A stretch of DNA of 64,000 bases. It comes from a virus. Its lineage: Duplodnaviria > Caudoviricetes. Location of the stretch: positions 128,001 to 192,000 of the IMG/VR virus record IMGVR_UViG_3300020477_000013. One strand, 5' to 3'. Position numbers and translations under genes: made by a program. The notes under the pieces are model-generated. The model saw nothing but the letters and a program-made list of their open reading frames with translations, was not told the DNA's origin and did not search any database. Positions 17,161 to 54,202 of the stretch are shown in pieces (position 1 is the first letter of the stretch; each line of letters begins with the position of its first letter).

Positions 17161-17201
17161 CCTACATATTTATATAACATAAATAATGTGAGGAAAACAC
17201 C

Positions 17202-18371: not shown

Positions 18372-18527
18372 ATGTCTGACACAGTAGTTGCATCATTAAT
18401 AATTTTAGGATTCACTGTCACGGGTATATTTTTAGGTGCATGGTTTGCCGCACGGGGGTTCGAGAAATCGCTTATTCAAATGATGGATGATCCTGATGCA
18501 CCGTGGAACAAGGAGGATGAAGAGTGA
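18372..18527 (+). CDS. Small TM protein (51 aa)
   Basis: MSDTVVASLIILGFTVTGIFLGAW...; GTGA overlap with 18524. Confidence 0.55.
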   Translation: MSDTVVASLIILGFTVTGIFLGAWFAARGFEKSLIQMMDDPDAPWNKEDEE

Positions 18528-18898
18528 GAATTACAAAGAAGCAGCTAAGGCAAGTCATTCGTGAAGCAGTCGAAGAAAATGAGCTGCTCGGCCTTACGGG
18601 CCCATGGCATGAAGTCGTAGCTGCATACATAGCTCGTGGTCCCGGTAATGGGAGTCAGTCTGCAACAAATATGGTGCTTAATAAGTTACACATGGGCCCG
18701 GATCTATGGCGTATGCAAGAGGATGTTTTAGAGGACATGCTTATTGAGCTTGGGCCAAATGCCACCCCTGAACAAATTGATGCGGTGAGTATTGAATTTC
18801 GCGATGGCGTTCGTGCCAATAAGTGGATGCCTCAAACCAAGGAAGAAATGGAGGCTGATTGGGCCCGCGGCGGAAAGCCTCGTGCGGATTACAGTTAG
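18524..18898 (+). CDS. Leader-family protein
   Basis: MRITKKQLRQVIREAVEE; GGAGG RBS. Confidence 0.8.
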   Translation: MRITKKQLRQVIREAVEENELLGLTGPWHEVVAAYIARGPGNGSQSATNMVLNKLHMGPDLWRMQEDVLEDMLIELGPNATPEQIDAVSIEFRDGVRANKWMPQTKEEMEADWARGGKPRADYS

Positions 18899-18906
18899 GG
18901 TGTTAG

Positions 18907-19152
18907 ATGAAAATTACACGTAGCCAACTTAGAAGAATCATCCGAGAAGCGATATTGCTAGAAGACAAAGAGGGAAAAGGAAAATGCCCTGATGATGGTT
19001 GTGTTCAAAAGCGCTCGAAGGGCTGGGTTATTATCTCTAACAAGACCGGAGAATGCTGGGGCAGAAGTAAGAAGCAGGGAGGCGAGTGTACATATTATGG
19101 CTCAAGGGAAAAAGCTGAAGCAGCGCTTGGCGCTTATCATGCAGGTGGGTAA
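18907..19152 (+). CDS. Leader-family protein, 4-Cys cargo
   Basis: MKITRSQLRRIIREAILLE. Confidence 0.8.
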   Translation: MKITRSQLRRIIREAILLEDKEGKGKCPDDGCVQKRSKGWVIISNKTGECWGRSKKQGGECTYYGSREKAEAALGAYHAGG

Positions 19153-19401
19153 ATGAAGATGTCTGGCAAACAGTTGAGAAAGATTATTCGAGAGACGTTA
19201 TCATTGGACCTTGAGGTTGGTGACGTAATTCTAACAGGCCGATTCAAGAATAAGCGCACTGTCGTTAGGGAACTAGGGACTGATGATCTAGGTCAACCAA
19301 CCGTTAACGGGATGAAGGTCTTATCTTTTCGCATTGAAAAACTGATGCCAAAAAGTAAGTGGAGTAAGAAGACACTGGAAGAGATAGGGGAAGACGAATG
19401 A
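19153..19401 (+). CDS. Leader-family protein, SH3/KOW-like cargo
   Basis: MKMSGKQLRKIIRETL; LEVGDVILTG. Confidence 0.75.
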   Translation: MKMSGKQLRKIIRETLSLDLEVGDVILTGRFKNKRTVVRELGTDDLGQPTVNGMKVLSFRIEKLMPKSKWSKKTLEEIGEDE

Positions 19402-19685
19402 GAATAGGGTTATCAAATTTGAGAATGTTGATTAGAGAGGCATTGGAGGTGTCTGATGAAGAGATTAGGGCATTTCTTTCTGACCAGGCTGCAACTTACC
19501 ATCAGGACCACAGTCTAGACATTGATGGTGATGAAATTCCGGATGCATCCGCTATTCGTGAACTACTGCAGGCCGATTTTCTAAATAACTTTAGTCATAT
19601 CTCAATTAGCGATTATGCTGATCTTATTGACAGGTTATCTGTGATGCCTGACGTCAAGTGGTCACGCCCTGTGATGATGGTGTAG
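19398..19685 (+). CDS. Leader-family protein (divergent leader)
   Basis: MRIGLSNLRMLIREALE. Confidence 0.7.
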   Translation: MRIGLSNLRMLIREALEVSDEEIRAFLSDQAATYHQDHSLDIDGDEIPDASAIRELLQADFLNNFSHISISDYADLIDRLSVMPDVKWSRPVMMV

Positions 19686-19692
19686 GTTATAG

Positions 19693-19989
19693 ATGTGGCC
19701 GAAGGGGTATCAACTTAAATGGTTTCGAAGGGAACTTCCAAGAAAAGAAGGTCCTGCCCCGCCTATGAGACCCGGTTTCGGCCAAACACCCCTTAACGTA
19801 ATACAGGATGGTGATAAATTTTACGTTGGGACCTACTTTGTTTTACCTGATGGGTCTAGGAAACCATATACAGTTGAGAGTCAATATTTCTCCACGGAGA
19901 AAGAAGCCAAAGTTGTATTGTCAAGAATGACAGGCGGAAAAATGAAGGAGTCACTACTGCGTGCTTATGTAAGAGAGATGCTGGGCTAA
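19693..19989 (+). CDS. Hypothetical protein with C-terminal helix motif
   Basis: Ends MKESLLRAYVREMLG. Confidence 0.6.
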   Translation: MWPKGYQLKWFRRELPRKEGPAPPMRPGFGQTPLNVIQDGDKFYVGTYFVLPDGSRKPYTVESQYFSTEKEAKVVLSRMTGGKMKESLLRAYVREMLG

Positions 19990-21147
19990 ATGAGTAATGA
20001 TAAAATATCTGCATTTTACATAATGACAGAACCTGAGAAGATGGGTTACCCATATATTGAATCGATCACCTCTGTGCTGTCTTTTGCCGACGAGGTGGTT
20101 CTGGTGATGGGTAGAGATGAACCGGCTAGCGAGAAAAAGATTGACCAGTTGGCACGTTCTATTCCTCGGCAAAAGTCAGTTAAAATAGTGAAGACCCATG
20201 CTTGGCCAGAATTCGGATGGAACTATAATATAATGAGAGATCATATTCAACGCGGTTTGGACGAGTGTACACATGACTTATGTTTAAAGGTGGATTGTGA
20301 CTATGTCTTTAGAGATCAGCATTGTGATGAGATCCGTTCAGCAATTCAAATTCATGCACAGGATAATCATTTAGTAACCTTTGGCAGGGTCAATTTTTCA
20401 TGTTTAGGAAAAGCAGATTATCAACCAGCGATAGATCACACGCCTTGTTACGTTATTAATAAACGTGCATTGAGAGATGATGGCATAGAGTGTGCTATAT
20501 CCAATGAGTCGGGATCGAACCAACCTATTTTCATGAAAGACGAAAGGGTCCTAGATGTGTCTTCCGGTAAGGACCTCAAGGTGCTACCCCTAAGTCCTAT
20601 GTTACCAGATAGCCTAGAATCCTGGGTTTATCATTACCTTGTGATATGTCCAGTAAATTATTCATACACTTTCATGACTGCATCAAGAATTGCTAAGACG
20701 TGGTCTGAGTGGCATAGGGCTATACATCTCAGGTTTGGTAATCTCCGCATGCCGAATTTCGATTTAGATGATATGCATCAATCAATCAAGAATTTTGCGG
20801 CTTATCATTTCCAAGCAAAGATTCCATCCCTGGGGCATTGTAGAGACTGGGATGAAATAAGGGGTATTATTTTAGGCTCCAGCGGTGATACTTTAGCGGA
20901 TATGGTCAACAGGGGTATTTTACATTGTAATGACAGAGGTGAACCCCAGGTGTCAGGGGCCATGACAATGCAACTTGTAGACCACCCTGCATGTATGAGA
21001 CATGTATTACAGGGCATTTCATCCGACAAGTGGGGATTTAATAACTTTAACCTGCCTGAACCTCCCTCGAGGGGATTAACGCATGAAGGTGCGGCTGCCA
21101 TATATGAGAAGTGGTTAGGGGATATTGGTAGTTACTTGAATGAATAA
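19990..21147 (+). CDS. Glycosyltransferase family 2-like protein
   Basis: YPYIESITSVLSFADEVVLV, CTHDLCLKVDCDYVF (DxD). Confidence 0.65.
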   Translation: MSNDKISAFYIMTEPEKMGYPYIESITSVLSFADEVVLVMGRDEPASEKKIDQLARSIPRQKSVKIVKTHAWPEFGWNYNIMRDHIQRGLDECTHDLCLKVDCDYVFRDQHCDEIRSAIQIHAQDNHLVTFGRVNFSCLGKADYQPAIDHTPCYVINKRALRDDGIECAISNESGSNQPIFMKDERVLDVSSGKDLKVLPLSPMLPDSLESWVYHYLVICPVNYSYTFMTASRIAKTWSEWHRAIHLRFGNLRMPNFDLDDMHQSIKNFAAYHFQAKIPSLGHCRDWDEIRGIILGSSGDTLADMVNRGILHCNDRGEPQVSGAMTMQLVDHPACMRHVLQGISSDKWGFNNFNLPEPPSRGLTHEGAAAIYEKWLGDIGSYLNE

Positions 21148-21269
21148 ATAAACCCCCCCGCAACAACCGGGATTTTAATTCATTTTTAAGTGTCCCTTAT
21201 CGGTTGCATGTGATATTTATTTGCAGAATTGAATTATGGTATTCATATGATATCATCTAGGGGTTTAAA

Positions 21270-21377
21270 ATGAGTGAATTTTTATGGGGCTTTGTTGCGG
21301 GTGCGGTTGCTTCTCCTTTTGCATGGGAAGGCCTTAAGTGGTGCTTCCGAAAGGTGAAGGAAGCCACTAGTAAATAA
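21270..21377 (+). CDS. Small membrane peptide (35 aa)
   Basis: MSEFLWGFVAGAVASPFAWEGLKW...; fills an intergenic gap. Confidence 0.45.
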   Translation: MSEFLWGFVAGAVASPFAWEGLKWCFRKVKEATSK

Positions 21378-21443
21378 GTGGTATTATATTAAAATTTGCG
21401 TTAGCGTGGGATAATTGGTCTGGGCCCACGAGGGGAAAATAAA

Positions 21444-21704
21444 ATGAGACTATCAAAAAATCAATTAAGACAAATCATTCGAGAATCGCATAGTGAGTCG
21501 ATGTCGGGTGTGAATAGTCAGGTTAGAGAGTCACTCAGCTCTCACGAAGAAAAAGCTCAGGCGGACTCCTTCGCCATGTTTCCCGGTAACACTATCATGG
21601 ACTTGGAATCACTTCACGACTTGTGGTATGGTCGCTTTACAAGTGATGAAAACTTGATACTTGACCAGGCAATTGCACTTTTGAACAGGGAGCTCAGGGG
21701 GTAA
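21444..21704 (+). CDS. Leader-family protein
   Basis: MRLSKNQLRQIIRESHSE. Confidence 0.8.
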   Translation: MRLSKNQLRQIIRESHSESMSGVNSQVRESLSSHEEKAQADSFAMFPGNTIMDLESLHDLWYGRFTSDENLILDQAIALLNRELRG

Positions 21705-21706
21705 TA

Positions 21707-21988
21707 ATGCAAATATCACGTAAGAAGTTAAGAAGAATCATTAGGGAATCGTTGCTTCAAGAGTACGGTCCTGAATCTCGTGGGGAGCCCGGGCACAGAG
21801 GTGCAGATGGAAACTGGGTCGATCCTGGCATGGATGGTTACAATCCATACAAGGACAAGTCTCTGGCACCTGGTAACGGTTGGCCCCCTGAAGAGAGATC
21901 GGCAGCTATTAGAGCGTATACAGGCAGAGATGGTTACATTGCCAACTCTCAAGTGGACAAAAGCTGGGTGCATCCAGCATTTCGATAA
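21707..21988 (+). CDS. Leader-family protein
   Basis: MQISRKKLRRIIRESLLQE. Confidence 0.8.
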   Translation: MQISRKKLRRIIRESLLQEYGPESRGEPGHRGADGNWVDPGMDGYNPYKDKSLAPGNGWPPEERSAAIRAYTGRDGYIANSQVDKSWVHPAFR

Positions 21989-21999
21989 GAGATAAACTA

Positions 22000-22362
22000 G
22001 TGAAAATCACAAAACGACAACTCAGACGAATTATTCGGGAATCAATCACGGGCACGACAATTTATGTCGAGAAGAGTCCATACGGTGGGACTATGATTGA
22101 AGATGAGAATGGCGAATATCTTTCTGTGGGAGAGATGGTAAAATCCTTATTAGACTCAGGTGAATCAGACTTCTTTCACGATGCTTTAGGGCTACAGGAA
22201 CTCATGGCAGCCCATAGCCGTGGTGTTCAGGGTGGTATGCAGAAGTGGGACTCTGATGTGTTCGAACAATACTACAGCCTAGACATGGATAAAATGATTG
22301 ACACATATGCCGGTGCTAATGGATTACAAGTCAAATACATCCCCATGGGAGAGGATTACTAA
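22000..22362 (+). CDS. Leader-family protein
   Basis: GTG start; MKITKRQLRRIIRES. Confidence 0.85.
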   Translation: MKITKRQLRRIIRESITGTTIYVEKSPYGGTMIEDENGEYLSVGEMVKSLLDSGESDFFHDALGLQELMAAHSRGVQGGMQKWDSDVFEQYYSLDMDKMIDTYAGANGLQVKYIPMGEDY

Positions 22363-22363
22363 A

Positions 22364-22633
22364 ATGAAGATCACAAAAAGACAACTTAGAAGAATCATCA
22401 AGGAAGAGAAAGCGAGGCTTCTTATAGAAATGAATCCCGCTGTTGAGGAGGGAATCTCACGTGGCGTGCAGAATGGCATTTGGGGCTGGCTCGAGCGCGA
22501 GTTTGCCCAAGACATGACCGGTGAAGATGTGTGGAATAATCCTACATACACCGAGAGTATTGCACACGCATTGGAAACAATTGCCAAGGAAGTACGGACC
22601 GCAGGGACGCAAGAAGGTACGTACGGGGGGTAA
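22364..22633 (+). CDS. Leader-family protein
   Basis: Start at TAAA-ATG 22364; MKITKRQLRRIIKEEKARLLIE. Confidence 0.85.
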   Translation: MKITKRQLRRIIKEEKARLLIEMNPAVEEGISRGVQNGIWGWLEREFAQDMTGEDVWNNPTYTESIAHALETIAKEVRTAGTQEGTYGG

Positions 22634-22634
22634 A

Positions 22635-22922
22635 ATGAAGATCACAAAAAGACAGCTCAGACGAATTATCAAAGAACAACTTCAACTTCTTAGTGAGGAG
22701 GGCTATGATAGTTATCGTGATAGTAGGCGAGAGGCTGGCTATGGTGGAACAACTTGGAAGAGTAAGCAAGACTATAGGCGTCGAAGAGCCCAACAGATAA
22801 AGTATGCAGAGGAAGTCACAGCCCAGGGAAGAGAAGATGCCCTTGCCGGCCGGCCTAAAGACGCTAGCATAGGGCACCTTGCGTACCATGAGGCATACGA
22901 CGAAGCGCTCAAGGAAGCATGA
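22635..22922 (+). CDS. Leader-family protein
   Basis: Start 22635; MKITKRQLRRIIKEQLQLLSE. Confidence 0.85.
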   Translation: MKITKRQLRRIIKEQLQLLSEEGYDSYRDSRREAGYGGTTWKSKQDYRRRRAQQIKYAEEVTAQGREDALAGRPKDASIGHLAYHEAYDEALKEA

Positions 22923-22923
22923 T

Positions 22924-23259
22924 ATGAAGATCACAAAGAGACAACTCAGAAGAATCATCAAGGAAGAGCTTCAATCCATGACAGTTGACAAGCGAGATCA
23001 GCTTATGGATGCGCTGGAAGATAAATACGGACTCCAGGTAAGAACTACCGAAGAGTTTGGTTCTGGTCCTGGGGGCGTATGGATTGCTGCTGAGTCAGCT
23101 TCCGCACAAACGCCGGACGGCTTACCACTGTTTGACTACTACTTGGACATGGATCCATATGAATTTGGTGTACACCCGGAATTTTCAAGGTTTATTGCAC
23201 CTTATGGTTTTTATGCAGAGTGGAATGATCCAGGAACATTAATGTTGTGGAGGGTGTAA
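22924..23259 (+). CDS. Leader-family protein
   Basis: Start 22924; MKITKRQLRRIIKEEL. Confidence 0.85.
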   Translation: MKITKRQLRRIIKEELQSMTVDKRDQLMDALEDKYGLQVRTTEEFGSGPGGVWIAAESASAQTPDGLPLFDYYLDMDPYEFGVHPEFSRFIAPYGFYAEWNDPGTLMLWRV

Positions 23260-23260
23260 C

Positions 23261-23608
23261 ATGAGAATCACAAAGAGGCAGCTAAGAAGAATTATTAAGG
23301 AAGAAAAGGCGAAGCTGATAAGAGAGTCATTTTCGCCTGATTCTATCGCTGAGTTTGATAGGGAAATTAATTCCAATCTGGAACAGGGGAAGTTGTACCT
23401 TGACATGGGTGATACTTCGATGGCTCAGATGTACGATGATGATGCATATTCTTTAGAGGCCATTAGAGATATGGCCATTCAAGACAGGGCAGCTGGTGAG
23501 CCTATGGGATCAAATTCACTTCGTAATTTGGTTAGCCGTTTAGACACAGCCGCACGTGAAAAGATACCAGACGACTTCTATTACTGGATAATCGGCGAGG
23601 ATTATTAA
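23261..23608 (+). CDS. Leader-family protein
   Basis: MRITKRQLRRIIKEEKAKLIRE. Confidence 0.85.
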   Translation: MRITKRQLRRIIKEEKAKLIRESFSPDSIAEFDREINSNLEQGKLYLDMGDTSMAQMYDDDAYSLEAIRDMAIQDRAAGEPMGSNSLRNLVSRLDTAAREKIPDDFYYWIIGEDY

Positions 23609-23609
23609 A

Positions 23610-24068
23610 ATGAGAATCACAAAGAGGCAGCTAAGAAGAATCATTAGGGAAGCTTATTATGAAGATGCCGAAGACCGAGGATATTTTGACCATGTTGGTG
23701 GTCTCAACGCTCCTAAGCATCCTGATAATGAAGAGTATATGGCTGGGTGGGATCAATCCATCATAGATGATAAGGTCTCCGCGGACCACAAGGCAGAGAA
23801 GGAGATGGAAAGAAGGCTCCAGCCAGCACGCGATAGAACAATGGCAACACTCGATAGATCACGTCAGGAACTGGAGAGTGCCCATGGAATCACTGACGAC
23901 TTGGCCTACGAAGTTGAGATGGGAAGTCTCTTTCTGGCTAAGGAAGATGAGCTCCGTAAGCTGGCCAATGCAAGTGGTGCCCAAGGCCTAGCCGCTAAAA
24001 AGTTATTGGACATGACCCCCCAGCAACGTGCTGCATATAAAAGTTTAATGATTAGGACAACGATGTAG
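23610..24068 (+). CDS. Leader-family protein
   Basis: MRITKRQLRRIIREAYYE. Confidence 0.85.
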   Translation: MRITKRQLRRIIREAYYEDAEDRGYFDHVGGLNAPKHPDNEEYMAGWDQSIIDDKVSADHKAEKEMERRLQPARDRTMATLDRSRQELESAHGITDDLAYEVEMGSLFLAKEDELRKLANASGAQGLAAKKLLDMTPQQRAAYKSLMIRTTM

Positions 24069-24087
24069 GTCGTAAATAAGATATTAC

Positions 24088-24348
24088 ATGAAAATCACTA
24101 AGAGACAACTAAGAAGAATCATCAAGGAAGAGAAGGCTAAGCTTCTTAATGAGTATACGCCTGCCGATACCAGCGGGTCAGCTCCTTATTCTAGCCCTGC
24201 AAACATTGAAGAAGAAATAGCAGAACTCGAAAATGCTCTTAACTCTCTATACGTCGCAGGCAGAGCACTTCCTTTTCCGATGGATAGAAGAATCATGGAT
24301 GCTACCGAGATGATCGAGAGGGCGCTCAATATATTACAAGGAAAGTAA
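24088..24348 (+). CDS. Leader-family protein
   Basis: MKITKRQLRRIIKEEKAKLLNE. Confidence 0.85.
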   Translation: MKITKRQLRRIIKEEKAKLLNEYTPADTSGSAPYSSPANIEEEIAELENALNSLYVAGRALPFPMDRRIMDATEMIERALNILQGK

Positions 24349-24349
24349 A

Positions 24350-24622
24350 ATGAAGATCACAAAGAGACAACTAAGAAGAATCATCAAAGAAGAGAAGGCC
24401 AGGCTCATGAATGAACAACCTACTCGCCGGCCTGACTATAAGTTTAATCAGGGCGTACAGGGTGAATATGCTCCCGGTGAATCAGTACTTGAGGATTTGA
24501 TGGTCGCGGTTGACGAAGCTATTGCCAACGCCACGGGTCAGATCGATCTAGATTTTCAAGATGGTCCGCTATCGTCTAGACAAGTTGTCAATTTTGTTAT
24601 TCGATCGTTACAGGAAAGATAA
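24350..24622 (+). CDS. Leader-family protein
   Basis: MKITKRQLRRIIKEEKARLMNE. Confidence 0.85.
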   Translation: MKITKRQLRRIIKEEKARLMNEQPTRRPDYKFNQGVQGEYAPGESVLEDLMVAVDEAIANATGQIDLDFQDGPLSSRQVVNFVIRSLQER

Positions 24623-24623
24623 A

Positions 24624-25013
24624 ATGAAAATCACCAAACGACAACTTAGAAGAATCATCAAAGAAGAGAAGGCCAGGCTCATGTCCGAAGCCGACACTGG
24701 AATGCGACCAGGGCCAGATGGCATTATCGTCGTCGATCGTGGAAATATGGGGAGAGAAAAAGATCGTTGGCTGGTACTGTTTGAGGTGGAAGATATTGTA
24801 TCCCCCGAGCTATACACTTATCTCTCGCAAAGAAGCGATTGGAGAAAACTAACATCTGGCCCTAAGGCAACAGGCCCGACCGAAGAGGCAGCCCGGGCCA
24901 AGCTCAACAAGGCTATTGATAAGTTTCTGGCAATGCTATCTCAGAAAATCATTGAAGCACGAAACGAGGTCGGCATGCTGGACGAATTCAGGGCAAGCTT
25001 GGAGAAACTATAA
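24624..25013 (+). CDS. Leader-family protein
   Basis: Start 24624; MKITKRQLRRIIKEEKARLMSE. Confidence 0.85.
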   Translation: MKITKRQLRRIIKEEKARLMSEADTGMRPGPDGIIVVDRGNMGREKDRWLVLFEVEDIVSPELYTYLSQRSDWRKLTSGPKATGPTEEAARAKLNKAIDKFLAMLSQKIIEARNEVGMLDEFRASLEKL

Positions 25014-25014
25014 A

Positions 25015-25299
25015 ATGAAAATCACAAAACGACAACTTCGAAGAATCATCAAAGAAGAGAAGGCCAGGCTTCTATCTGAGGTGACCCCCGGTGAACGTGA
25101 TGATGCTAAGAGGCTTGATGCAGAGTGGGCAGCAAGGGTAAATGCAGAGCAAGGTGCCCTCCAATCTCAAGCTGATATCTCACGTGAGTTAGGCGAATTA
25201 CATAATGCTATCGATCGATTGATTGACGTGATGGGCCGTGATGAAGTAGCCGCTGAGCTTGAGGGAATCGCAGAAGAGATTAGGATGGGAATGGTATGA
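25015..25299 (+). CDS. Leader-family protein
   Basis: Start 25015; MKITKRQLRRIIKEEKARLLSE. Confidence 0.85.
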   Translation: MKITKRQLRRIIKEEKARLLSEVTPGERDDAKRLDAEWAARVNAEQGALQSQADISRELGELHNAIDRLIDVMGRDEVAAELEGIAEEIRMGMV

Positions 25300-26951
25300 A
25301 AATCACAAAAAGACAACTCAGGCGAATCATCAAAGAAGAGAAGGCCAGGCTCATGGAGTATGGTGGCCGACCTTATGACCCAACTGTTCCTGGAGACTAC
25401 GAGCGATATCGTGATAATCCGACCGGCGACGCGCCTCCGGGTGGCGAGTGGGATGCAAAACTGGAGAAGATGGCCGATGAAGTCGGTGATCGAGCCGCCG
25501 GTGGATACGAACCATCGATGGACGGTTCTCCTGAAGCGTATGCTGACCATATCCTTGATTGGTATGCTGAAGACCCACCACCTCCGCTCGACGAGATGGA
25601 GGGTTTAGCGTTTGCACTGTCAAAGCCCTATTATAGAAAGGTGATTAAGGCCGCGGTTCTCGAGTACATCGGAATGATGACAGAAGGAAGGGCTTTACAT
25701 GAGCAATACCATTCCATGTCACCAGCCGGCAAATCCTTGTCTAGATCGATTAAAGGTAAATTCATGAGGATGTACCCCGACGCCTCGGTCGGGATTGACG
25801 GTCGTGAAGGGTGGATCACAGTCAATGGTAAAAAGGCTATCAATATGTCCCAGGCTAGCGGACGCGGAATGTCAGATGAAGAAATGATAGACAAGATGCA
25901 TGCAGTATATGCCCAGTCACAAGTAGATCCCGATATCCCAACCGCCGACACGAGAATGGATACGTTTATGGAGGGAAAAATGAAAATCTCAAAACGACAA
26001 CTCAGGCGAATCATCAAAGAAGAGAAGTCGAGGGTTTTATCTGAGCGCCGAATGCAAATTGCACCACGACGAAGGCGTAGCGTTCTGTTGACAGAGCGTA
26101 GTTTACGTTACGTAGCACGCCAGGCTATCATCGATCACAACCGAGGTGTTCGAATTGATGAGAATTGGTTTAGTGACGTAGCAAAGAAGGCCAAGGCCTT
26201 TGTCGCCGATAAAGTGGAAGACGCCCAGATAATGTTTAATGACTTCAAGAAGAAGCTCCCGGGTGGTATGGCAAAGCACATATCTAAGGCGTACAAGAAA
26301 ATGATCAGAGATGTCAAAGAGATGACAGACAAGGTCGATTTTGGGCTATACGATTTGAAAGCTATCGAATGGCAGCCAGATTCCATGGAGGAGGCACTAG
26401 AGAACGGCAAGATCGTCAAGAAGTTCTTTGATGACTTTAACATCGACATGGACATCAACGATCTAATGGGTCAAGAGAATTTTGACGCTGATACCGAGTA
26501 TGATCTCAATCAAAAATTTAAGAAATCCCTAAGGGATGTTATGCAACGAACAGAGTTTTACGTGTTCACTGATACTGAGATTGAGAAAACTAAAAAGAAG
26601 ATTGTCGACGCCCTAGGGGAAAAGAAAGGAAAGGCAGTTGCTGAAGAGATGGCAGAAGAGCTAGTTGCAACAATGAAAGAGTACGAAGAAGACGTGCTTA
26701 GTCGCGATTATGCTGATGAAATATCGCTGGCAGTCCGTGGGTATGCCAAGTCCTTAGCCTATGCTGCTGAGCAAGAGTGGGCAAAGAAGATGGATGAGAA
26801 AGAGCGTCGATTAGCTGGCCTAGAGCGTATGAAGATAGCTGATGCCAACGAAAAAGCAGCTTGGAAGAAGGAGGAGCGACGAAAAGATCGCGCCGCTAAG
26901 AAGAAGTACAGCACTGAGCCGGAGGACCGGACAAGGTCTAAGTGGAGCTAA
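25296..26951 (+). CDS. Leader-family fusion protein, with a second in-frame leader at 25980
   Basis: 551 aa; N-terminal MKITKRQLRRIIKEEKARLME and internal MKISKRQLRRIIKEEKSRVLSE at aa 229. Confidence 0.85.
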   Translation: MKITKRQLRRIIKEEKARLMEYGGRPYDPTVPGDYERYRDNPTGDAPPGGEWDAKLEKMADEVGDRAAGGYEPSMDGSPEAYADHILDWYAEDPPPPLDEMEGLAFALSKPYYRKVIKAAVLEYIGMMTEGRALHEQYHSMSPAGKSLSRSIKGKFMRMYPDASVGIDGREGWITVNGKKAINMSQASGRGMSDEEMIDKMHAVYAQSQVDPDIPTADTRMDTFMEGKMKISKRQLRRIIKEEKSRVLSERRMQIAPRRRRSVLLTERSLRYVARQAIIDHNRGVRIDENWFSDVAKKAKAFVADKVEDAQIMFNDFKKKLPGGMAKHISKAYKKMIRDVKEMTDKVDFGLYDLKAIEWQPDSMEEALENGKIVKKFFDDFNIDMDINDLMGQENFDADTEYDLNQKFKKSLRDVMQRTEFYVFTDTEIEKTKKKIVDALGEKKGKAVAEEMAEELVATMKEYEEDVLSRDYADEISLAVRGYAKSLAYAAEQEWAKKMDEKERRLAGLERMKIADANEKAAWKKEERRKDRAAKKKYSTEPEDRTRSKWS

Positions 26952-26955
26952 AACA

Positions 26956-27219
26956 ATGAAAATCACCAAACGACAACTTAGAAGAATCATCAAAGAAGAG
27001 AAGGCACGAATCCTTAGGGAGATCCGAGATGAACGATCTCCCCAGGGCCGCCAATCTGCTCGTGGTCCCGCTAGCGCCTATGATCAGGGATATGAAGCAG
27101 GCACAAGGGGCGATCGATCTGAAATGCCACTCGAGCAATACGGTACACCTTTCTACGATGCATGGATGGAAGGCTGGGATGACGGACTAGCTTCATTCCA
27201 TGGTGGCGGAAGCTACTAA
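26956..27219 (+). CDS. Leader-family protein with RMF-like cargo
   Basis: Start 26956; AYDQGYEAGTRGDRSEMP...DAWMEGWDDG. Confidence 0.8.
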   Translation: MKITKRQLRRIIKEEKARILREIRDERSPQGRQSARGPASAYDQGYEAGTRGDRSEMPLEQYGTPFYDAWMEGWDDGLASFHGGGSY

Positions 27220-27266
27220 ACGAAACAGGCAATTTTAGCCAACAATATTATAAAGGAGAAATTACA

Positions 27267-27365
27267 ATGAGAAAAGTATTACATAGATTAGTAAATTTAT
27301 TCAATAACTCACACTGCTGCTGCTGCTGTGGTTGCTGTCCTCACCCTGAGAAGTCTTGCTGTTAG
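27267..27365 (+). CDS. Cys-rich micropeptide, 32 aa with 9 Cys (metallothionein-like)
   Basis: AAGGAGA RBS; MRKVLHRLVNLFNNSHCCCCCGCCPHPEKSCC*. Confidence 0.7.
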   Translation: MRKVLHRLVNLFNNSHCCCCCGCCPHPEKSCC

Positions 27366-27376
27366 GGGTACATGAT

Positions 27377-27631
27377 ATGAGAGTCACTAAGCGGCAACTA
27401 AGGCAAATCATTAGAGAAGCTCTTGAAACCGAAATGGAAGAGGGGGATGTACTTGGTGAGGAAGACCTTGAGGAGTACTGGACACCCGGCATAGATACTT
27501 CAGGCCGGGTAGATACCAGCAGGGCAGACAAAAAGCCTACAGGCCAGGAAATGGGTTGCAAAGATCGAAGGACCGGGAAGACTGTTGAGCCGTATTGGCA
27601 ACAGAGAATGGGAAAATGGGTGTGCCCATAA
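27377..27631 (+). CDS. Leader-family protein
   Basis: Start 27377; MRVTKRQLRQIIREALE. Confidence 0.8.
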   Translation: MRVTKRQLRQIIREALETEMEEGDVLGEEDLEEYWTPGIDTSGRVDTSRADKKPTGQEMGCKDRRTGKTVEPYWQQRMGKWVCP

Positions 27632-27894
27632 TGAAAATTACAAAAAGACAATTAAGAAGAATCATCAAAGAAGAGAAAGCCAAGCTCGTCTCCGAGATAT
27701 CGGCTGAACGGGGTGCTAGCCTGCCTCGTACCCATATGGGCGAGACAATCACACCAGAGAGCGTCGTTGCCGACCTGTTTAATTTAGCAGCTAAGGTAGA
27801 AGCTTTAGGTGAAGATTTCTTTTCTGACAGCGACAGCTTAGCTGATTGGGCGAATAATTTTATGTCCAGACATAACGTTATGCAGGAGAGATAA
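27631..27894 (+). CDS. Leader-family protein
   Basis: TAATG overlap; MKITKRQLRRIIKEEKAKLVSE. Confidence 0.85.
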   Translation: MKITKRQLRRIIKEEKAKLVSEISAERGASLPRTHMGETITPESVVADLFNLAAKVEALGEDFFSDSDSLADWANNFMSRHNVMQER

Positions 27895-27901
27895 CATTAA
27901 A

Positions 27902-28150
27902 ATGAAAATCACGAAGCGACAACTCAGAAGAATCATCAAGGAAGAGAGGGCCAGGTTACTTAATGAAGGGCCTAACCTAGCGCTTCGTAATGCGATCATG
28001 GATACTTACGAGGGCGTGTATGGAGATCTAATCTCACAAGGTGCCGATCCATCGGTTGCACAAGATCGAGCTAGTGATGCAGTTATGTCAGAGGTTGAAG
28101 CCTGGTTGGATGCCGTAGGAATTCCACGCACATATGTGGGATTATCATAA
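27902..28150 (+). CDS. Leader-family protein
   Basis: MKITKRQLRRIIKEERARLLNE. Confidence 0.85.
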   Translation: MKITKRQLRRIIKEERARLLNEGPNLALRNAIMDTYEGVYGDLISQGADPSVAQDRASDAVMSEVEAWLDAVGIPRTYVGLS

Positions 28151-28401
28151 TGAAAATCGCCAAACGTCAGCTAAGAAGAATCATCAAAGAAGAGAAAGCA
28201 CGATTGTTGACAGAGGATAGCATTAATGCTGCAGAAGATCGACTTTTCGCCGCTATAGATGACTTTGTACAAGTGGTAGATGAGGAACTAGGGTACGATG
28301 TTCCACTTCACGTGTTACGGCGGCAGGTTGATGATGTAGTTGGCTCAGCTTTTGCACAGTTTGAAGCGGACCAAAAAGCAGAGGATGACTTAAGATCATG
28401 A
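28150..28401 (+). CDS. Leader-family protein
   Basis: MKIAKRQLRRIIKEEKARLLTE. Confidence 0.85.
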   Translation: MKIAKRQLRRIIKEEKARLLTEDSINAAEDRLFAAIDDFVQVVDEELGYDVPLHVLRRQVDDVVGSAFAQFEADQKAEDDLRS

Positions 28402-28760
28402 GAATCACAAAACGACAACTCAGACGAATCATTAAAGAAGCCATGGAAGATGAGCCCATCCGCATGATACCAGGTGATTCATTCCCTGCAGATGCGCTTA
28501 AATCAAGGCGCTCCAGGAAACCCCAACCCTCCGGCGAATTCAGAGACACAATCGTTATGAGTCCAACCGGCGATACTCTCCTAGTCGGTGGGCAGGAAGT
28601 GGCTCTTCAAAATGCTGTAAAAGAACTCGAGATACAGTCAGGTCAGCCAGTGTCGGCCATACAAGCAGGTGATATCAACGCGAAGCTATTAAGACAGTAT
28701 GGTCAAGGATACGTTGAGCTTCCAATATCTTGGTCGCCCAATACAGGATGGAAATTCTAA
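28398..28760 (+). CDS. Leader-family protein
   Basis: MRITKRQLRRIIKEAME. Confidence 0.85.
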   Translation: MRITKRQLRRIIKEAMEDEPIRMIPGDSFPADALKSRRSRKPQPSGEFRDTIVMSPTGDTLLVGGQEVALQNAVKELEIQSGQPVSAIQAGDINAKLLRQYGQGYVELPISWSPNTGWKF

Positions 28761-29017
28761 TGAAAATCACGAAAAGACAGTTAAAGCAGATCATCAAAGA
28801 AGAGAAGGCAAAGCTCAATGAAGGTGGATGGAGTAAGGGTCCAGAGCGCCTTAGGGAGATTAGGGAAGGAATGCTAGAGGCCTTATTCCAGTCCATCGAT
28901 GCTCAAGCCTCTTATGATCCAGAAGCCCTGGGAATTATTAAGTCTGAAATAATGATGCGAGGCCTAGATTTTAGAAAAGAGGCACTGGCTTACTTACGAG
29001 AACTAGAGGGTTATTAA
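28760..29017 (+). CDS. Leader-family protein
   Basis: Start 28760; MKITKRQLKQIIKEEKAKLNE. Confidence 0.85.
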   Translation: MKITKRQLKQIIKEEKAKLNEGGWSKGPERLREIREGMLEALFQSIDAQASYDPEALGIIKSEIMMRGLDFRKEALAYLRELEGY

Positions 29018-29018
29018 A

Positions 29019-29333
29019 ATGAAAATTACAAAGAGACAGCTTAGAAGAATCATCAAGGAAGAGAAAGCCCGGCTTGTAAATGAGATCCAGGCTGAGAAAG
29101 ACGTCAGGCAGCTGACCCTTAATCAAGGTGAGGTTGATAAGGTTGAGGCCATGCGATCAGCACTGGATAGAATGTTCTTTGAGTATCGAAAAATAAATTC
29201 AATACCCCCACAATGGCTTGATGACTCCAACGGGTTCGGTACATCCAGGTATGATAAACTAGAAGAACTGTTGATGGATGCAGGCGAAGAAATGTCAGAC
29301 TTGGTACATGATATGAAGAAAGTGGGAATATAA
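29019..29333 (+). CDS. Leader-family protein
   Basis: MKITKRQLRRIIKEEKARLVNE. Confidence 0.85.
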   Translation: MKITKRQLRRIIKEEKARLVNEIQAEKDVRQLTLNQGEVDKVEAMRSALDRMFFEYRKINSIPPQWLDDSNGFGTSRYDKLEELLMDAGEEMSDLVHDMKKVGI

Positions 29334-29413
29334 GACTCAGAGTGAGGTTCAAAGGTTGAACCTCGTATCATTAACAAAAAATTATCTATATTAAAAAATG
29401 GGAGGCACCTAAA

Positions 29414-29995
29414 ATGATAGTTACAAAGAGACAATTGAGAAGAATAATCAAGGAAGAAGCACGCCGTCTAATGGAGGACAGCATTGACAGTGAGCTTGAT
29501 CACCTTAAGAAAAATGTGCATGATGATATTGAGCACATTCGTGATCTAAAAGATGACATTAGGGATGATCATGAAGAAGAGCTTCGTGCGGAGAAGGCAC
29601 GCAAGGATGAGTCGCGCCGGAGGACAAAGTCTAAGCTACGCAGGATTGTTCGTCGTACTATCAACGAAGAGCATGCAGACTGGGGCATGGGAAAAGATGA
29701 AGATTCACGTACACACCATGGCGAAAAAGATTATACAGGCCATAAGGGTGATCATTCAAAGACTCATCCAGGTGAATTAGACTATGAAGATGATGCAGCT
29801 GGAAGAGCACATGATGCAATTGCTGCTATTCATGACCTGGCATCTGCAGCAGGCGTTGAGCTTGATGTTACGGCCGGGGATGCTCTTGACAGTGAGGATG
29901 CAACGATCATCGCTATGGAAGGCAGGCTCCGCCGACAGGCACTAAAGAAGCGTATTAAAAGATTGACGAGGGATGCGATCCGCCGAGGACTATAA
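29414..29995 (+). CDS. Leader-family protein; His/Asp-rich, with extra internal basic helices
   Basis: MIVTKRQLRRIIKEEARRLME; GGGAGG RBS. Confidence 0.85.
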   Translation: MIVTKRQLRRIIKEEARRLMEDSIDSELDHLKKNVHDDIEHIRDLKDDIRDDHEEELRAEKARKDESRRRTKSKLRRIVRRTINEEHADWGMGKDEDSRTHHGEKDYTGHKGDHSKTHPGELDYEDDAAGRAHDAIAAIHDLASAAGVELDVTAGDALDSEDATIIAMEGRLRRQALKKRIKRLTRDAIRRGL

Positions 29996-29996
29996 G

Positions 29997-30239
29997 ATGA
30001 AAATCTCAAAACGACAACTAAGAAGAATTATCAAAGAAGAGAAGGCCAAGTTACTAAAAGAGGCACCGACTCCTGAATTTGGTATATTCGATCAGTATTA
30101 CCTAGCTGATCTACTGATGGAAGAGGTCGAAAGTTTTATGGACCAGACAGGGGTGGATAGCTTCGGGCCGGCCGAGGTCGAGGATATGCGTAATGCAGTC
30201 ATGGCGGCACTTGATACGATTGTGAAACAGGTGAGCTAA
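29997..30239 (+). CDS. Leader-family protein
   Basis: Start 29997; MKISKRQLRRIIKEEKAKLLKE. Confidence 0.85.
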   Translation: MKISKRQLRRIIKEEKAKLLKEAPTPEFGIFDQYYLADLLMEEVESFMDQTGVDSFGPAEVEDMRNAVMAALDTIVKQVS

Positions 30240-30259
30240 ACCTAAGTGAGGTTAAAATT

Positions 30260-30652
30260 ATGAGAATTTCAAAACAACAATTAAGAAGAATCATCAAAGA
30301 AGAGCGCATGCGAATTCTTTATGAGGAAGTTGAAGAGATGGAGATCAAGGTAGACACTAATGAACACCACTGGCCTCGTGTAGAGTGGTCGAACATTGGT
30401 GAGCTTACCGATAAGTGGGCAGACCAAGAGAGAAATGCTTGGGATAAAGGTGATACGTCTATGCTTCCGGAGAAGCCGGAAGACGTCAGCATATCCGCAT
30501 GGGAAGCAGAGCATAAGGCTGCTTGGGAAGACCAGGTAGAAAATGCTGCATTAGATTTAGAGGCGGAGTTAACCACACGGATCCGCAGGCTAGCTCTTAA
30601 AACGATGCAGGAATTTACTGATTCGCTGATAGCGGGTGATTATTCTGCCTAG
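30260..30652 (+). CDS. Leader-family protein
   Basis: MRISKQQLRRIIKEERMRILYE. Confidence 0.85.
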   Translation: MRISKQQLRRIIKEERMRILYEEVEEMEIKVDTNEHHWPRVEWSNIGELTDKWADQERNAWDKGDTSMLPEKPEDVSISAWEAEHKAAWEDQVENAALDLEAELTTRIRRLALKTMQEFTDSLIAGDYSA

Positions 30653-30660
30653 TTTGGTAA

Positions 30661-31506
30661 ATGGGGGTGAAGCAGATGCCTAAAGACAACCACAAGAAAT
30701 TTCTATCAGAACTTAAGGACTTATCACCGACAGAGCGCCGTGTTGCTTTAAAACTAGCACGCTCATCACGTCCTTCAGCGCGAAGGTATATAAGGCTTGT
30801 CTTAGAGAATAAGAAATCCTACAGCAAAGCCGGTACGGGTAGTATGTCTGCTAAGGAGGGTGATTCTCGGCACTCCGCCAAAAGAAAAGGGGATTATTTT
30901 CAAGCTAATGTCATCGCTGAGGGAATTTTTGGGTGGTCTGGCGAAAAGATAATGAAGAAGATTGTTGGTAGGAATTATGCACCCCCTATCCGAGTAGATG
31001 CTGCTGCAAAAAATCTCGAGGTTGCGCTTGGGCAGTATGCGACGTCTTATGCGAGGAAGGCTACGCCTCGCCGTGTATCTCCTGATGAATTTGCTCAAGA
31101 AGCAAAGGCAGGTTTAGCTAAGGGCCTGCGGCTATGTACTTCATTTGCAAGGCACGTTGCTACTTCTTTAGACGCTAAAACTGAACCTGCTCAAATCAAG
31201 AGGGAATCTACGGATATTCGGGAAAAAATTCTGCGTGCAAAGATTAGGGAGCTTCTTGTAAAAGAGCAAGTTGTTGGGTATACGGCGCCGCAAGAAAAAA
31301 AGTCTGATGGTGGGGGATACTTGAGCGTAGGTGACATGGGTGTTGATACAACACTCGGTGATGATTCAACGGACGAAGATCAGGCATCAGCTAACCAGGT
31401 AAGAAAGCTAACACAGCAACGCCAACAAGATTTAGATTCTGGTGATACAGTTGATGCAGAAAATGTGGGTCAACAGCTTGGCATGGCCAGGAAGATGAGA
31501 GGGTAA
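30661..31506 (+). CDS. Hypothetical protein with internal helix motif
   Basis: IREKILRAKIRELLVKE; start may be ATG 30676. Confidence 0.65.
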   Translation: MGVKQMPKDNHKKFLSELKDLSPTERRVALKLARSSRPSARRYIRLVLENKKSYSKAGTGSMSAKEGDSRHSAKRKGDYFQANVIAEGIFGWSGEKIMKKIVGRNYAPPIRVDAAAKNLEVALGQYATSYARKATPRRVSPDEFAQEAKAGLAKGLRLCTSFARHVATSLDAKTEPAQIKRESTDIREKILRAKIRELLVKEQVVGYTAPQEKKSDGGGYLSVGDMGVDTTLGDDSTDEDQASANQVRKLTQQRQQDLDSGDTVDAENVGQQLGMARKMRG

Positions 31507-31507
31507 A

Positions 31508-32149
31508 ATGAGGGTCACACGAAAGCAACTAAGAAGAATTATTAGAGAAACATGGGCCGATGATGATAGAGATTTCTCTGCACCCCCAGGCGAAGAAGAC
31601 TACTACGCTCCCGGTGGAGAAGGTGAGCAGGTTACGGATACACAGCTCAAAAGAGGCTGGGGTTCATGGCTAGAAGAAAGAGGCCTGGAATTTGAAGACT
31701 TGGACGATCTCGCCCTCGCGGCCGGCGCACCTAACAGGACATGGCTAGATTCCATCCCTCCGCATGATGGTTTCATCGGCCCGTTGGATGTTGGGGTGTG
31801 GGTAAAAGATATACAGGCTGCTAAGGAAATATTGTCAACAAGAGCAGGAGACTACAGTTCGTCGCCACATGGTAAGAAGATGAATGAAGGCGTTGACCCC
31901 CGAGGCCTTAAGACATATCTCAAAAGCCTGGGGGTCAAGCGAAGCTTCGGCAACTTGACCGATGTTCTATCAACAGTGTTTAACGAATTCGAGGGTGATG
32001 CTGTAGACATGAAGGAAGAGGTTGAGATCGTTAATGGCATACGTGATGATAACGGGCAGGCGATCAATTGGCCCATTGAAGTCTACCAAGACATCTACGG
32101 GCTATATAAAAAGCACCGGCGGGGATTCCGCGCTCAAAGGAGATGGTAG
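31508..32149 (+). CDS. Leader-family protein
   Basis: MRVTRKQLRRIIRETW. Confidence 0.85.
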   Translation: MRVTRKQLRRIIRETWADDDRDFSAPPGEEDYYAPGGEGEQVTDTQLKRGWGSWLEERGLEFEDLDDLALAAGAPNRTWLDSIPPHDGFIGPLDVGVWVKDIQAAKEILSTRAGDYSSSPHGKKMNEGVDPRGLKTYLKSLGVKRSFGNLTDVLSTVFNEFEGDAVDMKEEVEIVNGIRDDNGQAINWPIEVYQDIYGLYKKHRRGFRAQRRW

Positions 32150-32151
32150 TA

Positions 32152-32586
32152 ATGAAGATATCTAAAAAAAAGATTCAACAAATCGTAGCTGAAAATATAT
32201 TTGATTTGTTTATCGCACCAAAAAAAGTACATACGATGAAAATTTCCCAGCGGCAATTAAAAAGAATGATAAAAGAAGAGAAGGCAAAGCTCAAAGAAGC
32301 CGGCCCAAATTATCCCAAGCATGCATTTCCAGAGAAGACGCCGGCCAAACAAGGCGCTGCTATGACAACCTCTGGAGACCCACAGTCATACCATGACTTA
32401 GCGACACGCATGGATAAGATTACTTTATTGATTGAAGATCTTTCTATGGACTACGTCGATAGTGGCTGGTTGAAGGGAGGTGATCATGCTTCTTTGGCTA
32501 ATGATTTAGATAATCTCTTCTCTAACTCAGATAGGCTAGCTATGGCGGTTATGGGATTAGCACGATCAATGGGAGATATAGAGTGA
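32152..32586 (+). CDS. Leader-family protein with two tandem leaders (32152 and 32236)
   Basis: MKISKKKIQQIVAEN...MKISQRQLKRMIKEEKAKLKE. Confidence 0.8.
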   Translation: MKISKKKIQQIVAENIFDLFIAPKKVHTMKISQRQLKRMIKEEKAKLKEAGPNYPKHAFPEKTPAKQGAAMTTSGDPQSYHDLATRMDKITLLIEDLSMDYVDSGWLKGGDHASLANDLDNLFSNSDRLAMAVMGLARSMGDIE

Positions 32587-32921
32587 GAATCACCCGCAGG
32601 CAACTAGGAATAATTATCCGGGAAGAGATAGAGAAGTCGGCCCCCTTTGGAAGTGGCATGGAGCAGGCTGATCTCGACCCTGAAGAGAAAGAACTGATTG
32701 GGCACACATGACTGACACATGCCAAGCTGAAGTCTTCAGCTTTACAGGAATCTTACGGGATACGAGGGAATATGGCAGGAAAGGTTGTTTGGCACTCTTT
32801 AAAGAAGGACGGGTCAATCACTAAATATGATATAAGGTTCGGGGGTAAGATCCTTAGGGGGATTCCTGCTGCCCTTGTGGAGTCAATTAAAGAAGTACAA
32901 CATGAACATGAGGAGAGATAA
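32583..32921 (+). CDS. Leader-family protein with in-frame UGA (codon 43); candidate selenoprotein, 112 aa
   Basis: GTG start MRITRRQLGIIIREEIE; TGA at 32709-32711; frame open to TAA 32919-32921; 8-bp hairpin 12 nt after the TGA. Confidence 0.6.
32724..32742 (+). promoter_or_regulatory. Candidate bacterial SECIS apical stem-loop
   Basis: AAGCTGAA-GTC-TTCAGCTT perfect stem; loop starts GU, 21 nt after the UGA. Confidence 0.5.
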
Positions 32922-32922
32922 G

Positions 32923-33168
32923 TTGAAAATTTCAAAAAAACAACTAAGAAGAATTATAAAGGAAGAATTCGACAATATGCTGAGTGAGCCGACTCCGGAG
33001 GATGTTGTGCCGGTAGAGGATGCATGGGCAGGTGGGGAAGATTTGGTGATGCCGATAGACCACTCAGAGGCCGGCGGGTCTGAACCTGTAACTAGTTTTC
33101 CAGAGACGCTAGACATTGTCGACTCGATAACCGAAAGGGTAATGAGAAGATTAAGAGGGAATAGGTGA
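32923..33168 (+). CDS. Leader-family protein
   Basis: TTG start with GAGGAGA RBS; (M)KISKKQLRRIIKEEFDNMLSE. Confidence 0.8.
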   Translation: MKISKKQLRRIIKEEFDNMLSEPTPEDVVPVEDAWAGGEDLVMPIDHSEAGGSEPVTSFPETLDIVDSITERVMRRLRGNR

Positions 33169-42590: not shown

Positions 42591-42702
42591 AATAACGCAT
42601 GGTATAATATAAATGTGGTAAGGGGATTACCACACAGGAGATATCATGATTAGGTTTTTAACAGATTGTGTTTGTGCTTTTTTCTTGGGCCAACTAGCCG
42701 CC

Positions 42703-53965: not shown

Positions 53966-54202
53966 ATGAAGAACTATATAGCCTGCGGTGTAGCAGGTCT
54001 TGTCATGGGATTTTTGGTGAGCTGGTTTGTGATGACTGTTTGGGATGGGCTTATTCCTGCTCCACCCGAGAACGTTATTATCCGGCAGGCTCTTATGAGC
54101 CATTGTCAAGATACACCTGTGAGGGTATTATCCTGCCCCGGTCGGGTAGATACGTGTGTTTGTGGAAATCTTACAGAGAAGGATCTAAAGGGTGGAAAAT
54201 AA
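53966..54202 (+). CDS. Small membrane-anchored Cys-containing protein
   Basis: ORF track. Confidence 0.5.
   Translation: MKNYIACGVAGLVMGFLVSWFVMTVWDGLIPAPPENVIIRQALMSHCQDTPVRVLSCPGRVDTCVCGNLTEKDLKGGK

Follow-up and report, generated by a model that had tools for sequence, protein, structure and literature searches.

The stretch of DNA analyzed here (the window) comprises 64,000 nucleotides (nt) and corresponds to bases 128001-192000 of the 201,585-bp viral contig IMGVR_UViG_3300020477_000013 from IMG/VR, which has an estimated completeness of 73% and carries nearly all of its genes on the plus strand. Between positions 18524 and 33168 the window holds an array of genes whose products begin with the same short peptide, hereafter termed the leader, followed by otherwise dissimilar proteins, hereafter termed the cargoes. 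According to the initial annotation, 32 open reading frames (ORFs) in this interval start with variants of the leader, and 24 of them follow one another from 21444 to 30652 with a single ORF of 32 amino acids (aa; 27267-27365) as the sole interruption. Both statements were confirmed, the first by a six-frame scan that placed all 32 ORFs on the plus strand. The six-frame scan with the motif MKITKRQLRRIIKEE yielded 33 copies, all on the plus strand, between window positions 18524 and 32923; these are the 32 ORF starts and one in-frame internal copy (25980) within a 551-aa ORF (25296-26951). Three of the 32 leader ORFs start with GTG and one with TTG, and the spacers between array members are mostly +1, -1 or -4 nt. 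The features of the region are summarized in Table 1. Coordinates are those of the window unless they are given as genome positions, which count from the first base of the contig.

Table 1. Leader genes and associated features of the array region (window coordinates)
Feature	Position	Strand	Details
Promoter-like element	17166..17173	+	ATATTTAT, 36 nt before the ORF 17202-17783; stands at the head of an operon extending into the first four leader genes
First sub-array	18524..19685	+	Four leader genes: 18524-18898 (GTG), 18907-19152, 19153-19401, 19398-19685
Promoter-like element	21213..21220	+	ATATTTAT, followed by a 35-aa ORF (21270-21377) and then the main array
Main array, part one	21444..27219	+	14 consecutive leader genes, starting at 21444, 21707, 22000, 22364, 22635, 22924, 23261, 23610, 24088, 24350, 24624, 25015, 25296, 26956
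Internal leader	25980..26045	+	In-frame copy (MKISKRQLRRIIKEEKSRVLSE) at residue 229 of the 551-aa ORF 25296-26951; GGAGGG, Shine-Dalgarno-like, 5' of the copy
Leader gene with ribosome modulation factor (RMF)-like cargo	26956..27219	+	PF04957
Cys-rich micro-ORF	27267..27365	+	32 aa, not a leader gene; lies in a gap of 157 nt, the main array's only sizeable one
Main array, part two	27377..30652	+	10 consecutive leader genes, starting at 27377, 27631, 27902, 28150, 28398, 28760, 29019, 29414, 29997, 30260
ORF without N-terminal leader	30661..31506	+	281 aa; leader-like RRYIRLVLE at about residues 41-49 of the translation
Last four leader genes	31508..33168	+	31508-32149; 32236-32586; 32583-32711 (GTG); 32923-33168 (TTG)
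ORF with second leader type	33165..33845	+	226 aa (…SSLRYIIRNLLIE), straight after the array

The leader is not limited to the range given in the initial annotation. A leader profile detected at least eight additional N-terminal copies elsewhere on the contig (genome positions 83243, 83482, 83769, 84035, 87602, 109447, 120452 and about 194817), which brings the total to about 40 copies of the first leader type in the genome, and to more than 50 when a second leader type, described below, is included. In crude gene calls covering about 61,000 residues, the pattern [LIVMF][RKQ]x[LIVM][LIVM]xE occurred 73 times and began within the first 20 residues in 48 of these; 49 of about 260 such calls had the same arrangement (hydrophobic-(R/K/Q)-x-hydrophobic-hydrophobic-x-E) within their first 30 residues. 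The N-terminal clustering of the leader pattern far exceeds chance.

Four leader residues (M1, L8, I12 and E14) are invariant, three others (Q7, R9 and I11) are conserved in at least 90% of the copies, and Lys or Arg account for six of the first 13 residues. A hydrophobic-x-Glu triplet occupies residues 12-14 in all 40 copies. The second such triplet that had been reported for most members was found in 27 of the 40 genome copies, ending near residues 18-24. Among the 25 copies with Arg at position 13, the sequence I-I-R-E is followed by A, S or T in 17; the other form of this end is I-I-K-E-E, and a second L/I/V/M-x-E near residue 22 is usual. When all pairs of the 40 copies were compared, the proportion of synonymous differences (pS) in leader codons 2-15 was 0.74, as against 0.75 in unrelated cargo codons, whereas the proportion of nonsynonymous differences (pN) was only 0.18; Leu8 and Arg6 are each encoded by five different codons. 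Because synonymous sites are saturated but pN is low, it is the peptide that is conserved and not the DNA, and the DNA shared among the copies follows from the shared peptide instead of reflecting recent duplication, a conversion tract or an RNA element. The leader is almost certainly a functional module at the level of the peptide.

The initial annotation had described the leader as a basic amphipathic helix. This held in part: the hydrophobic moment (muH) is moderate over residues 4-15 (0.74, a value reached by 4% of shuffles) and not significant over residues 2-22. For the member at 24088-24348, AlphaFold2 run on an alignment of 17 orthologues predicted a helix at residues 5-22, a low-confidence linker at residues 23-36 and a helical hairpin as the cargo. 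The orthologues of this member retain both leader and hairpin, and two of them carry 25-70 extra residues in between; as modelled, the leader is a separable module.

The cargoes, which had been characterized as largely unrelated and usually acidic, are both. From residue 25 onward no pair was detected by BLASTP at E<0.01 and phmmer pairs were at noise level, and most cargoes have an isoelectric point of 4-5. A comparison of about 45 tagged (leader-bearing) proteins with Pfam and PHROGs found no family besides one RMF-like cargo, a tblastn search of the array members against 50,697 phage records gave no match, and an atlas search with the 213-aa member gave no usable match. The RMF-like ORF (26956-27219) matched PF04957 with an E value of 6.4e-6 and 26.6 bits, which is below the cut-off of 27.9; its three best PDB sequence matches were all RMF, but with E values of 0.3-0.5. 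PF04957 is present in most of the close orthologues of this ORF, and JGI has named two of them RMF. Leader and linker together form a 36-residue extension ahead of a domain that is found alone in bacteria. A gene for ribosomal protein S21 (genome 33596-33820; PF01165, E 2.7e-9) lies inside the head module of the same contig. RMF and ribosomal protein S21 both act at the small ribosomal subunit, and the presence of the two together hints at a theme of translation takeover. The cargo set differs strongly between relatives: in G001, a complete 293-kb relative, the capsid protein is 71% identical, yet tagged homologues are present there for only about 11 of the 40 tagged cargoes, three of them in the first sub-array (31-75% identity).

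The left part of the contig encodes a large terminase (TerL), a gp20 portal (PF07230), a 297-aa ORF, a Peptidase_S77, several small ORFs, ribosomal protein S21, a 597-aa acidic scaffold-like protein and a gp23-type capsid protein (PF07068), and the contig is that of a distant, uncultured, marine jumbo myovirus of the T4 type. A gp21-like protease and a scaffold had been predicted to co-occur with the leader, and both are present in this T4-type head module: the protease (genome 30278-30880) was assigned to Peptidase_S77 (PF03420, E 2.7e-26), and a gp22-like scaffold accompanies the portal and the gp23-type capsid protein. This protease shares 33% identity with T4 gp21, and the His, Ser and Asp positions of the two align. 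Among cultured phages, the closest capsid proteins are those of Flavobacterium phage immuto, Microcystis phage Mel-JY01 and Rhodothermus phage RM378, the close uncultured matches are huge phages, and the head modules of immuto and Mel-JY01 are syntenic.

The end of the leader resembles the sites at which head proteins of this type are matured. The N-terminus of the scaffold (MSKLFKEAIAE/AKQL, with a slash for the bond after Glu) parallels that of T4 gp22 (MLKEQLIAE/AQKI). In an alignment of capsid protein N-termini a single Glu is invariant, which is Glu61 here (…QVLRE/ANS…) and Glu65 in T4 gp23 (…FLTE/AEIGG…); the latter we take to be the maturation cleavage site of gp23, the T4 record stating that gp23 is cleaved by gp21 and nothing further. 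The I-I-K/R-E end of the leader matches the predicted capsid maturation site V-L-R-E/A of the same phage. Judged from these alignments, the cleavage logic of the head protease appears to be conserved. T4 gp67 (…DLIKEEK…LIE) was also considered as a homologue of the leader; the two are alike by eye, the likeness is not significant (2.7 bits), and it was not used.

The exact peptide pattern was found in 53 stretches on about 39 IMG/VR contigs, and a S77 protease was present in all five of the long leader-bearing contigs tested (267-293 kb). The leader proved essentially restricted to phages, which bears on a check proposed with the initial annotation: among 185,579 species genomes it occurred in four stretches in three records of metagenome-assembled genomes (MAGs). 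One of these records, NHDW01000006.1 (305,838 bp, MAG Methylococcaceae TMED69), has two exact leader copies, its MAG holds a S77 prohead protease, and it is probably the genome of a jumbo phage of the leader clade that was binned into a bacterial MAG. About 33 leaders, grouped in three arrays, are present in G001. The profile found one copy in phage immuto, in an unannotated gene (immuto35A_190) upstream of the head module, and the 484-kb phage LR756508 has at least eight copies, six of them within about 25 kb of the capsid gene; in both phages the peptide is kept though the DNA differs. The leader profile found no match in Mel-JY01, RM378, T4, Syn9, P-HM1, S-SM2 or the huge phage LR756511.

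Larger proteins encoded in a row at genome 81.6-87.5 kb begin with a second leader type (MKLLREYIRSLLxE), which keeps the hydrophobic and Glu pattern and has fewer basic residues. The ORF with this leader that follows the array (33165-33845) has a homologue in G001, which sits directly before a leader array there. Leaders also occur inside proteins. A 1076-aa ORF (genome 78414-81644) contains three internal leaders of the second type, around residues 34, 272 and 667, and is a candidate polyprotein of four modules as read from its translation; it matched no Pfam or PHROG family. In addition to the internal copy of the first type listed in Table 1, a 263-aa protein of G001 has an internal copy with Ile at the would-be start, and its second part can therefore be produced only as a fusion. 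Among 1.84 billion representative proteins, the leader profile matched 6,799 clusters at E<=0.001, almost all of them from phages. Nearly all of the best 150 of these 6,799 clusters have two or three leaders, and the matching cluster sequences that were inspected are strings of leader-cargo-leader-cargo. A leader that doubles as a cleavage site would render such fusions harmless; a strictly N-terminal signal would not, barring internal starts.

The octamer ATATTTA[AT] occurs 24 times on the plus strand of the genome, 16 times in the 8.9% that is intergenic, and is found, mostly at 27-46 nt, ahead of the scaffold gene, the head-tail adaptor gene, the sheath-like gene and other structural operons. 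Two occurrences precede the first sub-array and the main array (Table 1). In G001 the octamer is likewise found ahead of the portal and sheath-like genes as well as ahead of several leader genes or arrays. A promoter-like motif common to structural genes and arrays argues, at the level of sequence, for co-expression of the tagged proteins with the virion genes. Scans for promoters of the sigma-70 type and for terminators between 16.5 and 34.5 kb gave nothing above shuffled sequences. The T4 late-promoter word TATAAAT[AG] was also tried; it is not associated with structural genes or arrays and characterizes another class (GTATAATATAAATG with a hairpin) between 170 and 201 kb. The element GTATAATATAAATGT, followed by a GGGG…CCCC hairpin, stands before genes at window positions 42608, 50674 and 64081 and at genome positions 195999, 199841 and 201378; it looks like a separate promoter class with a stem-loop, recalling the promoter-stem-loop cassettes of T4-type phages. 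A sigma factor of the sigma-70 family (window 596-1366) matched in regions 1.2, 2 and 3, with no match for region 4. It is a speculative thought that such a factor without region 4 might read single-element promoters such as ATATTTAW (W, A or T).

Three details of the array itself deserve mention. The leader ORF at 32583 is 42 aa long and is ended by an in-frame TGA (32709-32711), past which the same frame stays open for 69 codons up to a TAA at 32919-32921, just ahead of the next leader gene; the TGA could be a nonsense mutation, a site of read-through or a recoded codon. Behind the first sub-array, a 98-aa ORF (19693-19989) ends in the leader-like MKESLLRAYVREMLG, followed in the same frame by the TAA-ATG of a gene for a GT2-like glycosyltransferase, and this end may be the relic of a former tagged start. 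The micro-ORF in the main array has nine Cys among its last 16 residues (…CCCCCGCC…CC), and the 281-aa ORF behind part two matched no family.

Taken together, these observations somewhat favour the reading that the leader is a capsid-targeting propeptide in the style of T4, removed by the S77 prohead protease and expanded to dozens of cargoes per genome. The parts of this reading differ in strength. The leader is probably a substrate of the protease; that the tagged proteins are encapsidated stands at about even odds; and for the cargoes to be injected effectors the chances are slightly poorer still. In the mechanism we propose, tagged proteins would be produced late in infection alongside the structural proteins and would dock on the scaffolding core of the prohead by their basic N-terminal helix (residues 5-22 approximately). 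The gp21-family serine protease would then cut behind Glu14 (I-I-K/R-E), behind the second hydrophobic-x-E near residue 22, or at both sites, which would both remove the tag and split the modules of fused proteins. The freed cargoes would remain in the head, enter the next host with the DNA and act there as early effectors, the RMF homologue being one of them. A docking helix for a scaffold or partner protein, which the initial annotation had offered as an alternative, is not really a rival, since docking is the presumed mechanism of the same capsid-targeting model.

Capsid loading as originally proposed is partly supported: each of its predictions that computation can address held, namely the protease in its head module, the restriction to phages and the co-occurrence with S77 proteases, while encapsidation, cleavage and injection are inferred. 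The leader has no sequence similarity to the T4 tag, and its profile finds nothing in T4. Several other observations weigh against the reading as well. In most copies Glu14 is followed by a further Glu; at the T4 gp21 sites compared, the corresponding residue is A, S, G or T. The arrays lie about 110 kb from the head module, and a small 140-aa ORF beside the protease (MSKISKSKLKTLIKE…) showed no significant likeness to the leader (E 0.36). Prediction of a complex between the gp22-like scaffold and the member 24088-24348 spoke neither for nor against binding. Most cargoes are acidic, unlike the basic internal proteins of T4, and a large number of acidic proteins next to packed DNA would be unfavourable electrostatically. 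The octamer ATATTTAW also precedes genes of unassigned role, and immuto is the only cultured phage found with a leader.

The most serious competitor, although an unlikely one, holds that the leader is a docking helix for a hub other than the capsid, for example the Hsp70, DnaJ or GroEL of the phage, the ribosome or RNA polymerase, so that the tagged proteins would be modulators acting in the same infected cell with nothing packaged. The phage does encode Hsp70, DnaJ, a chaperonin, a sigma factor and ribosomal protein S21; one cargo is RMF-like and thus directed to the ribosome, the helix of the leader is basic, with a narrow stripe of hydrophobic residues, and small acidic cargoes resemble many host-takeover proteins. 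Such a hub leaves unexplained, however, why the invariant hydrophobic-x-Glu end matches the capsid maturation site, why internal copies in fused proteins are frequent, why the leader strictly co-occurs with S77 head proteases and why the arrays have a promoter-like motif in common with structural genes, and no candidate hub gene consistently adjoins the arrays.

Far less probable is an arginine-rich nucleic-acid-binding peptide, comparable to the N-terminal motifs of lambda N and Rev, that would tether the cargoes to phage DNA or RNA. The six basic residues among the first 13, the predicted helix of this segment and weak, sub-threshold matches to the N-termini of ribbon-helix-helix or antitoxin proteins would fit, but the invariant positions are hydrophobic or acidic (L8, I12 and E14) while the basic ones vary, the second leader type has fewer basic residues and yet the same hydrophobic and Glu pattern, and no repeated RNA or DNA target was seen.

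It is equally hard to credit that the repeat is a gene-start cassette of DNA or RNA, consisting of a ribosome-binding site and an A-rich first 45 nt, which boosts translation and serves as a site for gene swapping with the peptide as a by-product. A purine-rich, Shine-Dalgarno-like stretch accompanies each leader copy, the genes are tightly coupled, and the codon choice in the leader is skewed relative to the genome (AGA, ATC, GAA). Some leader pairs share exact DNA runs of 28-50 nt, which suffice for homologous exchange and could promote the exchange of cassettes, but do not account for the family. Against the cassette as the main cause, which it largely excludes, stands the pS of the leader, which equals that of unrelated codons while amino-acid changes are four times rarer. 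Moreover, neighbouring copies are barely closer to each other than distant ones (codons for the same residue identical in 0.59 versus 0.55 of the pairs), and the peptide is conserved in immuto and the 484-kb phage with different DNA. A recognition sequence for a modifying enzyme, following the logic of ribosomally synthesized and post-translationally modified peptides (RiPPs) or of a maturase, would be in keeping with one N-terminal peptide on many unrelated proteins and with the GT2-like gene (19990-21147) between the sub-arrays, but is highly improbable given that the contig and the relatives G001 (complete) and G002 have no radical-SAM gene (PF04055), that the GT2-like gene is matched only weakly in G001, at a site far from the arrays of that genome, and that no other enzyme is consistently linked to arrays.

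Capsid targeting, the reading preferred here, has its precedent in T4, in which Mullaney & Black reportedly described a capsid-targeting sequence (CTS) on internal proteins in 1996. The T4 tag MKTYQEFIAE, as quoted in the initial annotation, occurs in two exact copies in T4. The internal proteins of T4 are a diverse set with only the CTS in common (PMC3012670). All internal head proteins of T4 join the core via this sequence, gp21 removes the propeptides, which are 10-20 residues long, and cleavage of Alt takes place at ITE-6 and LTE-619 (PMC5694885). The CTS is present on IPI, IPII, IPIII and Alt, and its removal by gp21 has been reviewed (PMC3012670, PMC5694885). The leader is like the T4 CTS in being a short N-terminal peptide with a hydrophobic-x-Glu end on otherwise unrelated proteins, in the length class of the T4 propeptides (10-20 residues), in its company of a gp21-family protease and a gp20/gp22/gp23 head module, and in its diverse cargo sets with fast turnover. 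It differs in that it is 14-22 residues long, strongly basic and without similarity to MKTYQEFIAE; only the N-terminus of the phage's scaffold resembles the T4 gp22/CTS type. The leader is present about 40 times per genome (more than 50 times when the second type is counted) instead of in the two exact copies of T4, the cargoes are mostly acidic where those of T4 are basic, and tandem leader-cargo fusions are frequent. The function has been shown for T4 only.

Jumbo phages of another type provide a second comparison. Heads of SPN3US contain about 50 proteins (PMC7411985), and ejection and inner-body proteins of phiKZ and SPN3US carry propeptides that are processed by S80 proteases at (S/A/G)-x-E (PMC5694885, PMC7411985, PMC10052503). 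Like the phage studied here they are jumbo phages, with tens of head-internal proteins; cuts are made after Glu, often several per propeptide, and paralogues may have identical N-termini (gp53/gp54). Their propeptides, however, are mostly longer than 100 residues and do not form one universal tag, the protease is of family S80 instead of S77, the rest of the head module is not of the T4 type, and long arrays of small tagged genes are not found there. The cargo-loading peptides of encapsulins are an analogy only: a short conserved peptide likewise sends unrelated cargo inside a shell of the HK97 fold, but is usually C-terminal, binds the shell and not a scaffold, stays uncleaved and serves one or few cargoes. 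The leader motif was not found in any paper, nor were leader-tagged arrays of such size in T4-type phages, the work on capsid targeting that was found concerning T4, phiKZ, SPN3US and P1. The principle is therefore known from T4, while the scale, the sequence of the leader, the fusion architecture and the lineage are new.

Upstream of the arrays and close together lie genes for Hsp70 (window 3279-5150, E 2.7e-246), a full-length DnaJ (10235-11281) and Cpn60 (genome 126582-128222). Auxiliary metabolic genes in the window encode a phosphoenolpyruvate carboxykinase (36433-37899), a malate synthase and an isocitrate lyase (54192-55703 and 55696-56940), which form the full glyoxylate shunt pair, and a protein of the IMPDH/GMP-reductase family (16126-17160).

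In its widest form, which we put forward tentatively and with less confidence than any of its parts, the reading is that a clade of marine jumbo T4-like phages uses a portable address-and-cut code of 14-22 residues to place dozens of small effectors in each capsid, with thousands of cargo families, many made as self-resolving polyproteins, and with an injected arsenal that includes a RMF homologue and is rapidly reshuffled between phages. Even if packaging should be wrong, one strongly selected peptide on about 20% of the genes of a phage is unexplained biology. If the tag works as in T4, it would mark thousands of uncharacterised proteins as early effectors delivered by the virion, and protein injection of the T4 type would involve tens of species per virion instead of three or four. 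The tandem leader-cargo fusions would then represent a simple polyprotein strategy in a bacterial virus, and the leader would provide another capsid-targeting peptide, unrelated to the first, with which foreign proteins could be loaded into phage heads. The tagged proteins would also provide a catalogue in which to seek functions of anti-defence and host takeover in the phages of the ocean, almost none of which can be cultured.

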